From IMG/VR virus record IMGVR_UViG_2537562191_000063: 12,608 nucleotides of DNA. One strand, 5' to 3'. Origin of the DNA: a virus (Duplodnaviria > Heunggongvirae > Uroviricota > Caudoviricetes). Shown here piece after piece: positions 5,298 through 6,601 of the stretch; position 1 is the first letter of the stretch; the number at the start of each line of letters is the position of its first letter. Position numbers and translations under genes: made by a program. The notes below the pieces were generated by a model that was given only the letters and a program-made list of their open reading frames with translations, searched no databases and was not told the DNA's origin.

Positions 5298-5453
5298 ATG
5301 CAAAAAATCGACCTCGGCAACAACGAATCCCTGGTGTGCGGCGTGTTCCCCAACCAGGATGGAACGTTCACTGCCATGACGTATACCAAAAGCAAAACAT
5401 TTAAAACCGAAACTGGTGCGCGCCGATGGTTGGAGAAGCACACAGTAAGCTAA
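5298..5453 (+). CDS. ydaF: small prophage protein YdaF (51 aa)
   Basis: ATG at 5298; translation MQKIDLGNNESLVCGVFPNQDGTFTAMTYTKSKTFKTETGARRWLEKHTVS. Length matches recollected Rac YdaF. Its 3' end overlaps the convergent sieB 3' end by 4 nt. Confidence 0.7.
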   Translation: MQKIDLGNNESLVCGVFPNQDGTFTAMTYTKSKTFKTETGARRWLEKHTVS

Positions 5454-5938
5454 CGATTAAAACGTCTACTCCTGCTGTTCCAGAATAACTTCATAAAATG
5501 GGAGTATTTTTCGGTGACGAGATAATAAGAACAGTTTGCGCTATCACTCTGATGTTGAATGATGCCCTTCCGTTCTAATTTTTTCATAACCGGGTTACGG
5601 CAAGGAGAAGTGATAATAAGATTTCCTGTTTTAAGGAAATCTTTAAATACAGCGATTTCTTTCTCAGATAAACGAAGCAATACTCGTTGCTCTGGTAGTA
5701 ATGAATAATGCTTTTGAATATGTGCTCGCAATCTTGAGAAGGAAATGGCGACCACGAAAGAAAAGGCAAAAACGATAATCTGAAAGAGCCAAGGTATTTC
5801 AGTATAAGCATTGAATGCGACAGTAAACTCTTTCGGTATCAGCCAGAGAGTGAGACCAAAAATGATAATCGTATACATAAGTCTTTCGAGTGGCTCGTTA
5901 GCAAAAAGTTTCAACAATGGAGTAAATACATCCAACAT
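5450..5938 (-). CDS. sieB: superinfection exclusion protein B (162 aa), membrane protein
   Basis: Start taken at the internal ATG 5938-5936 (MLDVFTPLLKLFANEPLERLMYTIIIFGLTLWLIP...), with GAGAG upstream, giving 162 aa as recalled for Rac SieB. Hydrophobic segments are present. The 41-codon upstream extension in the ORF track is rejected. Confidence 0.85.
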   Translation of the reverse strand: MLDVFTPLLKLFANEPLERLMYTIIIFGLTLWLIPKEFTVAFNAYTEIPWLFQIIVFAFSFVVAISFSRLRAHIQKHYSLLPEQRVLLRLSEKEIAVFKDFLKTGNLIITSPCRNPVMKKLERKGIIQHQSDSANCSYYLVTEKYSHFMKLFWNSRSRRFNR

Positions 5939-6156
5939 ATCAATAACTCTCAACTGTAAGGGTATTGAAATGTTAACACAAGCTCTCGCTGTAGGGGTAT
6001 AGCCGAGACCACCGAAGCCCGGAGGTGGTGAAATAAAACCGGGCACAACACGAAGGCGCATTTCCGATATCCATAAAGAGTCGGTCTTGTCTGTTAAATT
6101 TAAATGGTGGGAGTGCGCCTCCGGTTGTAAATAACGACATTGCTGTGTGTAGTCCT

Positions 6157-6204
6157 GGCGGCATCAGTTTTTTTCTTGAAGTTCGGCTGATGTCCGCCCT
6201 TTTT
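6157..6204 (+). terminator. candidate intrinsic terminator in the sieB-kilR spacer
   Basis: GGCGGCATCAG (6157-6167) pairs with CTGATGTCCGCC (6187-6198) as an 11-bp stem with one bulge; loop is 19 nt; followed by CTTTTTAAAG. On the minus strand no U-tract follows. Confidence 0.45.
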
Positions 6205-6379
6205 AAAGTGAATTTTGTGATGCGGTGAATGCGGCTAAGCGCACGTGGCACAGTTAAAAGTCATGTTAGTCCTTATTGGTTTGGGTGGGAAAGCCGACTG
6301 TAATTGTTAACTGGTTGCAGTCACCTGGAGGCACCAGGCACCGCATCAACAAAGTTCATTTGTAAAAATGGAGATAATT

Positions 6380-6601
6380 ATGATTGCACATCACTTCGGA
6401 ACTGATGAAATACCACGTCAGTGTGTGACTCCTGGCGATTATGTTCTTCATGAAGGCCGGACATATATTGCCTCGGCAAACAATATTAAAAAGCGAAAAC
6501 TATATATTCGTAACCTGACCACAAAAACATGCATTACTGACCGCATGATTAAAGTCTTCCTCGGTCGTGATGGTTTACCTGTAAAGGCGGAGTCATGGTG
6601 A
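6380..6601 (+). CDS. kilR: KilR, FtsZ-targeting cell-division inhibitor (73 aa)
   Basis: ATG at 6380 with GGAGA 7 nt upstream; [73 protein letters not shown] matches recollected KilR. Confidence 0.85.

Follow-up and report, generated by a model that had tools for sequence, protein, structure and literature searches.

The DNA analyzed here (the window, 12,608 nucleotides (nt) in full; IMG/VR virus record IMGVR_UViG_2537562191_000063) is the early region of the Rac cryptic prophage of Escherichia coli, in an orientation reversed relative to that of strain MG1655, and our analysis concerns the spacer between sieB and kilR together with KilS, the small RNA encoded there. Along the plus strand, the gene order is racR, ydaG, ydaF, sieB (itself on the minus strand), kilR, ydaE, racC, recE, recT, ralR/RalA, rcbA, xisR, and intR. 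For the divergent pair sieB and kilR, the original prediction, made from the sequence alone, had described a spacer of about 440 base pairs (bp) containing a terminator-like hairpin and other structure. In fact, the spacer measures 441 bp (5939-6379), lying between the sieB start at 5938 (minus strand) and the kilR ATG at 6380 (plus strand), as also given by the RefSeq annotation of MG1655, and both the hairpin and the additional structure are present in the sequence, as described below. At its kilR end, the Shine-Dalgarno sequence (GGAG) and start codon of kilR occupy 6370-6382 (plus strand), according to the sequence and the RefSeq annotation. Foremost, however long for a phage genome the spacer was said to be, its length is explained by an array of conserved RNA processing structures rather than by empty DNA.

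Central to this array is KilS (b4833), a 98-nt small RNA at 6107-6204 (plus strand), which we mapped by aligning the RefSeq ncRNA kilS (1418405-1418502, minus strand of MG1655) with the window. Here, the KilS sequence is 100% identical to the MG1655 ncRNA, and KilS ends with the final U of the hairpin's U-run. Over a 521-nt alignment (5900-6420), the window and MG1655 differ by a single mismatch at 6338, which lies outside KilS. Originally, KilS was predicted from RNA interaction by ligation and sequencing (RIL-seq) data as sieB.kilR.IGR and then confirmed by Northern blotting (Bar et al., 2021; Front Microbiol 12:635070, PMC8175672). In the same study (Bar et al., 2021; PMC8175672), the Northern signal matches the expected size, appears in stationary phase, and is Hfq-dependent, being absent in an hfq deletion, while the RNA was assigned to the kilR 5' untranslated region (UTR) with an independent promoter. 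Its transcription start site (TSS) was placed at 1418502 (Table S6) and its 3' end at 1418405, which are positions 6107 and 6204 of the window. The original prediction had offered, as one of two alternatives, a small RNA that starts in the spacer and has its 3' ends near 6204, and precisely this is corroborated by the RefSeq kilS entry and by the published TSS and Northern blot. KilS, its terminator, and the ends of the small RNA are thus already known (RefSeq and the 2021 paper), and the hairpin as first flagged adds nothing new; the value lies instead in the relatives of KilS. Just upstream of the TSS, we noticed a candidate promoter with an extended -10 element, TGtTAAATT (6092-6100, plus strand), that ends 7 nt before 6107 and has no good -35, and this promoter element (GTTAAATT) is conserved in relatives, including the Qin prophage.

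The hairpin itself is the intrinsic terminator of KilS (6157-6204, plus strand), in which the 5' arm GGCGGCAUCAG (6157-6167) pairs with the 3' arm CUGAUG(U)CCGCC (6187-6198) to form an 11-bp stem in which one U is bulged, after which come C and U5 (6199-6204). Sequence and fold therefore bear out the predicted 11-bp stem followed by CTTTTT and oriented for plus-strand termination. When folded, the RNA of 6139-6204 gave -21.0 kcal/mol (z = -3.63, with none of 200 shuffles as good), and the full KilS RNA (6107-6204) gave a z of -3.28. A consensus terminator scan did not report this hairpin, since its loop of 19 nt exceeds the scan maximum of 8. Nonetheless, it has the makeup of a Rho-independent terminator, namely, on the transcribed strand, a G+C-rich stem with a U-run right after it, and it is as such, the Rho-independent terminator of KilS, that 6157-6204 enters the overall explanation below, in which our confidence is high. 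By analogy, the terminator end may also serve as an Hfq-binding 3' end.

An RNase E site lies within KilS at 6138/6139 (plus strand; Clarke 2014 site 1418471, listed in Table S6 of Bar et al., 2021, and equivalent to window position 6138), in the context AC|AUU. Directly 3' of this site (KilS nt 32) begins a 16-nt box, AUUGCUGUGUGUAGUC (6139-6154, plus strand), which we regard as a candidate seed. This box is the longest common substring of KilS and the core-genome small RNA RprA, with 16 of 16 positions identical (KilS nt 33-48 and RprA nt 60-75), and its flanks in the two RNAs are also alike (AAAUAACGAcAUUG versus AAACAACGA-AUUG). As in RprA, it is a conserved single-stranded element between the RNase E site and the terminator. 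Over the whole RNA, the Rfam RprA model (RF00034) scored KilS at 28.1 bits (E = 0.48), and the gathering score of 70 is not reached. RprAproc, a processed and independently active form, consists of the last 47 nt of RprA (Brosse, 2022), and consequently starts at RprA nt 59/60 in the context GA|AUU. Going by the positions of the RNase E sites, processed KilS and processed RprA would both start with the same 16 nt, with a terminator after them in each RNA. In work by Chao and colleagues from 2017, RNase E is said to prefer R-N|W-U-U, and both the KilS and the RprA contexts would fit.

Besides the box, KilS and RprA have a target contact in common. The mRNA of yncL is the single robust RIL-seq partner of KilS (Bar et al., 2021; PMC8175672) and is listed as an RprA target by both TRIC-seq and RIL-seq (bioRxiv 10.1101/2025.09.11.675593). 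With a 20-nt box query, both RNAs are predicted to pair with yncL at +97..+118, just after the stop codon, and the duplex reaches -20.4 kcal/mol for KilS (matched by 2 of 60 shuffles) and -18.7 kcal/mol for RprA (matched by none of 60). These duplex tests were windowed RNAduplex runs with shuffles, as unrestricted runs gave meaningless whole-molecule duplexes, and the RprA control reproduced the known rpoS-leader site (-118..-93). Mimicry by KilS of the RprA-rpoS pairing was considered as well and rejected, as the best duplex lies elsewhere and 68 of 100 shuffles are as good. Moreover, neither the box nor the hairpin gave a signal over shuffles against the ftsA and ftsZ start regions or the kilR leader, and no complement of the box, with up to 3 mismatches, was found elsewhere in the 12.6-kb window.

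The box recurs widely in viral sequences, and an exact 14-mer of it is present in at least 120 IMG/VR contigs. Among the matches listed, a hairpin plus T-run stands within 16 nt of the box in 74 of 120, versus 9.5% at random control positions with the same lax detector, and there are at least 46 distinct box-plus-terminator sequences, with many terminator stems and several unrelated upstream contexts. Genes for DicA/RacR-like repressors are located 0.4-2 kb upstream on the same strand, RecE/RecT genes are often found downstream, and no YdiK or YdiL was seen at the box loci among the matches listed. Together, these flanks identify the box loci as early-left operons of prophages and not as rprA loci, and on the same grounds we rejected the notion that the RprA-like matches are host rprA genes on badly delimited viral contigs. 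While some box loci bear an almost complete RprAproc (e.g., locus L034, AUUGCUGUGUGUAGUCUUUGCCCAUCUCCCGUGGUGGGCCUUUUUU), the Rfam gathering score for RprA was reached by none of the box relatives that were scored. Across complete E. coli genomes, the last 56 nt of RprA mark rprA in 5424 of 5426, but also match at about 790 additional sites (at most 4 in any genome, with 27 on plasmids), and these are presumably prophage-borne RprAproc-like modules. A separate arrangement was observed at IMG/VR loci such as L013, L015, L032, L036, L043, L119, and L128, where the box ATTGCTGTGTGTAG is followed by GGCGGT... without a complete terminator. At loci of the L013 type, the box runs into a Shine-Dalgarno sequence and ATG (...CTTCAACC...GGGGGAGCGAAGATAATG), which in some prophages places it within a 5' UTR instead of at a small-RNA end.

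The position of KilS, on the other hand, is that of DicF in the Qin prophage, where the gene order is the same (dicA, ydfA (DUF1391), ydfB, ydfC, dicF, and dicB). Like DicF, KilS lies in the early-left operon between a conserved upstream helix and a dicB-type leader. When the Rac and Qin sequences are aligned, the arms of the upstream helix (D1, described below), the terminator hairpin, and the leader prove homologous, and the seed between them differs. In Qin, about 130 nt that are absent from Rac stand between the D1 3' arm and the seed. The Rfam DicF model (RF00039) matched 6144-6199 with 39.1 bits (E = 6e-7), short of the gathering score of 48; moreover, the DicF 5' seed UUUCUGGUGACG is absent from KilS, whose hairpin loop is also unlike the DicF loop. 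Judged from these sequence comparisons, KilS is the Rac allele of the DicF slot, yet not a DicF by either the Rfam criterion or the seed.

To sample this slot independently of the seed, IMG/VR was scanned with the terminator tail and the leader start as anchors, and at least 118 usable loci (counted as contigs) were obtained. Among the matches listed, at least 75 have DicF-type seeds, at least about 30 have KilS/RprA-type boxes (14 exact, 11 near-exact, and 5 with one mismatch), and a third seed type, CCAUGUUGAUUACCUUUU, occurs along with a few others. Hairpin loops are also exchanged among the relatives. Here, we noticed that CCAUGUUGAUUACCUUUU and the hybrid CCAUG(U/C)GUAGUCUUUGG both occupy the slot (equivalent to about 6130-6156) ahead of DicF/KilS-type terminators; we know of no named small RNA with either seed. 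At locus L105 (2444-2495, minus strand), a KilS/RprA-type seed is joined to a DicF-type hairpin, and this combination passes the DicF gathering score with 61.6 bits, such that automated annotation would name the L105 RNA a DicF despite its different seed.

Flanking KilS on both sides are helices of the plus-strand RNA. Upstream, the precursor helix D1 (6045-6128, plus strand) is formed by 6045-6063 pairing with 6111-6128, and the RNA of 6040-6130 folds with a z of -3.66 (1 of 200 shuffles as good). Across 61 distinct relatives, D1 shows covariation at G6055-C6119 (GC in 16, AU in 43), U6062-A6112 (UA in 20, GC in 37), and U6063-G6111 (UG in 16, GC in 35). As D1 encloses the KilS promoter and TSS, it can form only in transcripts that enter from the upstream early-left operon. 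Downstream, the kilR leader contains the conserved domain D3 (6205-6361, plus strand), which has a closing helix of about 20 bp (6207-6227 with 6339-6360) and inner hairpins at 6296-6322 and 6324-6338, and folds with a z of -5.53 (none of 200 shuffles as good). In the closing helix, only one cell is non-canonical among 20 pairs in 66 distinct sequences, with nearly all substitutions found there keeping the pairing (GC/GU or UA/UG), and hairpin 6296-6322 has two compensatory pairs. Depending on the prophage, a leader of the D3 type stands before kilR, dicB, or a rha-type gene. The Rfam model STnc100 (RF02076) was matched over its full length by 6201-6387 with 35.5 bits (E = 5e-6), short of the gathering score of 47. 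In Qin, RNase III cuts the long dicBF transcript to give a 72-nt DicF, which extends 19 nt beyond the terminated 53-nt form (Balasubramanian, 2016). The end of this 72-nt DicF corresponds to about window position 6218, which is within the 5' arm of the helix that closes D3, and on this account the closing helix is a probable RNase III site for read-through transcripts.

With regard to the leader itself, three further observations were made. The sole mismatch with MG1655 (6338, G in the window and A in MG1655) affects the base that closes the conserved hairpin CCUGG-AGGCA-CCAGG (6324-6338) on its 3' side, and the closing pair is C-G in 65 of 66 distinct relatives and C-A in one, and it appears from this comparison that MG1655 carries a rare variant that would break a pair in the kilR leader. 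The leader core (6221-6346, STnc100-like) is found at 74-80% identity in the P1-like phages P7 (AF503408, 72453-72568) and D6 and in Klebsiella phage Kp4865-4, these copies being outside a lambdoid early-left context. In addition, IMG/VR loci such as L111, L020, L033, and L042 have a hairpin GGUGG-AGGCA-CCACC, and then GCCACAAC, directly 5' of the box. Compared with the Rac leader hairpin CCUGG-AGGCA-CCAGG-CACCGCAUCAAC (6324-6350), the loop and the 3' flank are equal and the stem is compensated, and thus the AGGCA-loop hairpin looks like a mobile RNA module.

On the sieB side, the spacer part proximal to that gene (5939-5983, minus strand) is found solely in prophages that carry sieB, and it is here that the sieB ribosome-binding site and promoter presumably reside. 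In relatives without sieB (L005 and L007), a DUF1391 (ydaF-like) gene is joined directly to the homolog of window position 5984 onward. From this arrangement, it looks as though sieB (within 5450-5983) is an insertion into the conserved early-left operon of Rac/Qin-type prophages, and about 396 of the 441 bp would then belong to the plus-strand early-left operon. Because 5984-6061 is conserved in prophages without sieB, a 203-amino-acid open reading frame that extends sieB to 6061 is probably spurious; certain phage records (H71-H73) annotate sieB across the 5984-6061 region. At no less than 80% coverage, the spacer (5939-6379) is present in 1760 of 5426 complete E. coli genomes. Across the window, the sole Rfam match at gathering thresholds is RalA, the known antitoxin small RNA of the RalR/RalA system that is annotated in MG1655, which was matched over its full length at 10874-11052 (minus strand) with 225 bits.

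Between the sieB-proximal part and D1, two interleaved inverted repeats (6008-6044, plus strand) are found. The original prediction had named ACCACC...GGTGGT and CCCGG...CCGGG around 6010-6040, and both are indeed there, though about 2 nt away from that placement: stem 1 is ACCACC (6008-6013) with GGTGGT (6024-6029), and stem 2 is (G)CCCGG (6017-6022) with CCGGG(C) (6039-6044), the latter directly 5' of the CACAACACGAA box at the start of D1. The folding energy of these repeats is within the range of shuffles on both strands (plus strand, z = -1.43 with 18 of 200 as good; minus strand, z = -0.01). Equivalents of stem 2 occur in 44 distinct relatives, always just 5' of a conserved CA(C/U)AAC(A/G)CGAA, with stem sequences that differ (e.g., CCCUGA/UCAGGG, GCCUG/CAGGC, and GCUCC/GGAGC). 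Both stems are interleaved in three sequence types, in which stem 1 is ACCAC(C)/G(G)UGGU and the three loops measure about 3 nt, 1-2 nt, and 6-9 nt, the last of them A-rich, a claim that rests on per-sequence folds, as a MAFFT alignment put the second stem out of register. As just three sequence types show the interleaving, the repeats are only suggestive of an H-type pseudoknot, or at least of a conserved hairpin (stem 2).

Taken together, KilS is a known small RNA that, as the sequence comparison shows, is seated in the DicF slot between D1 and D3, and it probably has an RprAproc-type box as its seed. Accordingly worded as a scheme, KilS would be transcribed on the plus strand from its own weak promoter (TSS 6107) within the kilR 5' region. 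In a lysogen, this internal promoter alone would fire, and in the derepressed operon, long transcripts would be cut at helices D1 and D3 as well as at the RNase E site. The terminator would have two jobs, in that it makes KilS and limits polymerase entry into kilR-recET. Cleavage at 6138/6139 would release a KilS form of about 66 nt, whose 5' end is AUUGCUGUGUGUAGUC, and this box would then base-pair with host mRNAs, with yncL as the candidate and the predicted site just 3' of its stop codon. Neither RprA nor DicF is mentioned by Bar et al. (2021; PMC8175672), and we found no literature that links KilS to DicF or RprA or prints the box with Rac or KilS, although an earlier description elsewhere is possible. 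The placement of KilS in the DicF slot and its processed seed in common with RprA hence appear not to have been described previously.

The strongest competing view, which we rate as clearly the less probable, is that the hairpin acts chiefly in cis, as a tL-like attenuator by which kilR-recET is held off, with KilS as a by-product without a function in trans; a silencing terminator of this kind was the other alternative of the original prediction. The classification of KilS as a kilR 5' UTR RNA with very few RIL-seq partners speaks for it, and, moreover, the terminator stands between every upstream plus-strand promoter and kilR, and would therefore attenuate. The kilR gene is toxic and normally silent, and its mRNA rises about 3-fold when OxyS lowers NusG (Barshishat, 2018), so control is exerted via NusG, hence Rho. 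This documented silencing is accordingly NusG-dependent and not intrinsic, though the two roles can coexist. Against an attenuator as the main function, KilS is Hfq-dependent and occurs in chimeras with yncL, and the box is conserved while the hairpins vary. In fact, a box that is single-stranded, 5' of the hairpin, and conserved amid varying hairpins follows the pattern of a seed and not that of an attenuator. Attenuation of kilR is therefore likely a second role of the terminator and not the main explanation.

That KilS acts like DicF, blocking the translation of ftsZ by antisense pairing while KilR inhibits FtsZ itself, seems to us very improbable, even though the two RNAs have the same slot and homologous terminator hairpins, and each prophage has a division inhibitor gene directly after the small RNA. 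Apart from the missing UUUCUGGUGACG seed, the different loop, and the sub-threshold DicF score, the KilS hairpin against the ftsZ start gave -17.7 kcal/mol with 53 of 60 shuffles as good, although this same test also missed the real DicF-ftsZ pairing and is weak evidence, and the box against ftsZ and ftsA was no better than shuffles in the same low-power test. Least credible of all is the notion that the structures serve sieB on the minus strand (in its promoter, its operator, or its 5' UTR) or that the inverted repeats of this long intergenic region arose by chance, since, even if the spacer must hold the sieB promoter and the upstream repeat has an unremarkable folding energy, prophages without sieB conserve 5984-6379, the minus-strand folds have a z of about 0 to +0.8, the covariation and the wobble-preserving changes fit plus-strand helices, and a plus-strand RNA with these exact ends has been published.

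Several points weigh against the reading of KilS as a seed-bearing RNA of the DicF slot. KilS has 3 RIL-seq partners only and a low abundance (Bar et al., 2021; PMC8175672), and any regulatory effect of KilS on a target remains candidate-level. One of the two Northern probes (probe 2, the complement of 6127-6156) is complementary to RprA at about 26 of 30 positions, as counted from the two sequences. Because this probe covers the box, and because RprA has a near-equal size, an Hfq dependence, and a similar growth-phase pattern, RprA could account for part of the published KilS signal; probe 1 (6175-6197) is KilS-specific. The assignment of TGtTAAATT as the KilS promoter is one that we infer. 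Moreover, the 14-mer scan selects for the exact box, so the invariance of the box in that set is partly circular, and both this set and the anchor set include many near-identical E. coli prophages, their counts being of contigs and not of lineages. With longer segments of the small RNAs, the yncL pairing is not significant (8-11 of 100 shuffles as good), and the pairing is a prediction. Lastly, the box could be conserved for recognition by RNase E or Hfq instead of for target pairing.

Extending the favored reading of KilS beyond Rac, we entertain, with evenly balanced confidence, the idea that lambdoid prophages of the Rac/Qin type have a modular slot for small RNAs in their early-left operon, of which KilS is one allele and where the processing helices and the leader are kept and the seed and terminator are exchanged. 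The 5' end of RprAproc would then be the commonest seed after that of DicF, and prophages would feed the RprA regulon, with yncL as the first common target, or else the 3' half of RprA would descend from such a module. Either way, two leads make the function of KilS testable, namely that it is a positional homolog of DicF and that, once processed, it begins with the same sequence as RprAproc, a form with a documented but poorly understood activity of its own. If the box is a working seed, about one third of complete E. coli genomes would express a second, prophage-borne source of RprAproc-like activity, and, if true, the swapping of seeds within one fixed slot of prophages would clearly exemplify how phages rewire the post-transcriptional networks of their hosts.

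Set against known systems, the element in the window is, at 6107-6204, the same locus as the Rac KilS of Bar et al. (2021), identical throughout and with the same 5' and 3' ends. A more distant parallel is lambda. There, the tL terminators are intrinsic terminators in the early-left operon, upstream of kil and the recombination genes, and operate with N/nut antitermination. The Rac terminator is likewise intrinsic, early-left, and upstream of the kil and recombination genes, but it yields a stable Hfq-dependent RNA from its own promoter; neither an N-like gene nor a boxA/boxB nut site was identified, though no systematic search was made. As for STnc100, an Hfq-associated RNA candidate of Salmonella, its whole model is matched by the kilR leader, with a long closing helix and the CCUGG-AGGCA-CCAGG hairpin in common. 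Here, in contrast, the element is a 5' leader common to kilR, dicB, and rha-type genes and not a demonstrated independent small RNA, and its score is sub-threshold. DicF (Qin, RF00039) differs from KilS in its single-stranded seed, its hairpin loop, and the extra 130 nt or so, with the Rfam score below threshold and an ftsZ pairing unsupported for KilS. What the two do have in common is the same slot after repressor and DUF1391 genes and before a leader and a division inhibitor gene, a homologous terminator hairpin (GGCGG(C/U)AUCAG...CCGCCCUUUUU), the D1 and D3 helices, and a short form made by RNase E. Finally, RprA (RF00034) and its form RprAproc differ from KilS in locus (KilS is without ydiK and ydiL), in the 5' half, in the terminator stem, and in an rpoS-pairing region (nt 32-63) that is not reproduced in KilS, again with a sub-threshold Rfam score. 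Yet both RNAs are Hfq-dependent, accumulate in stationary phase, and contact yncL, and in both, an identical AUUGCUGUGUGUAGUC is placed 3' of an RNase E site (R-N|A-U-U) and 5' of a terminator hairpin.

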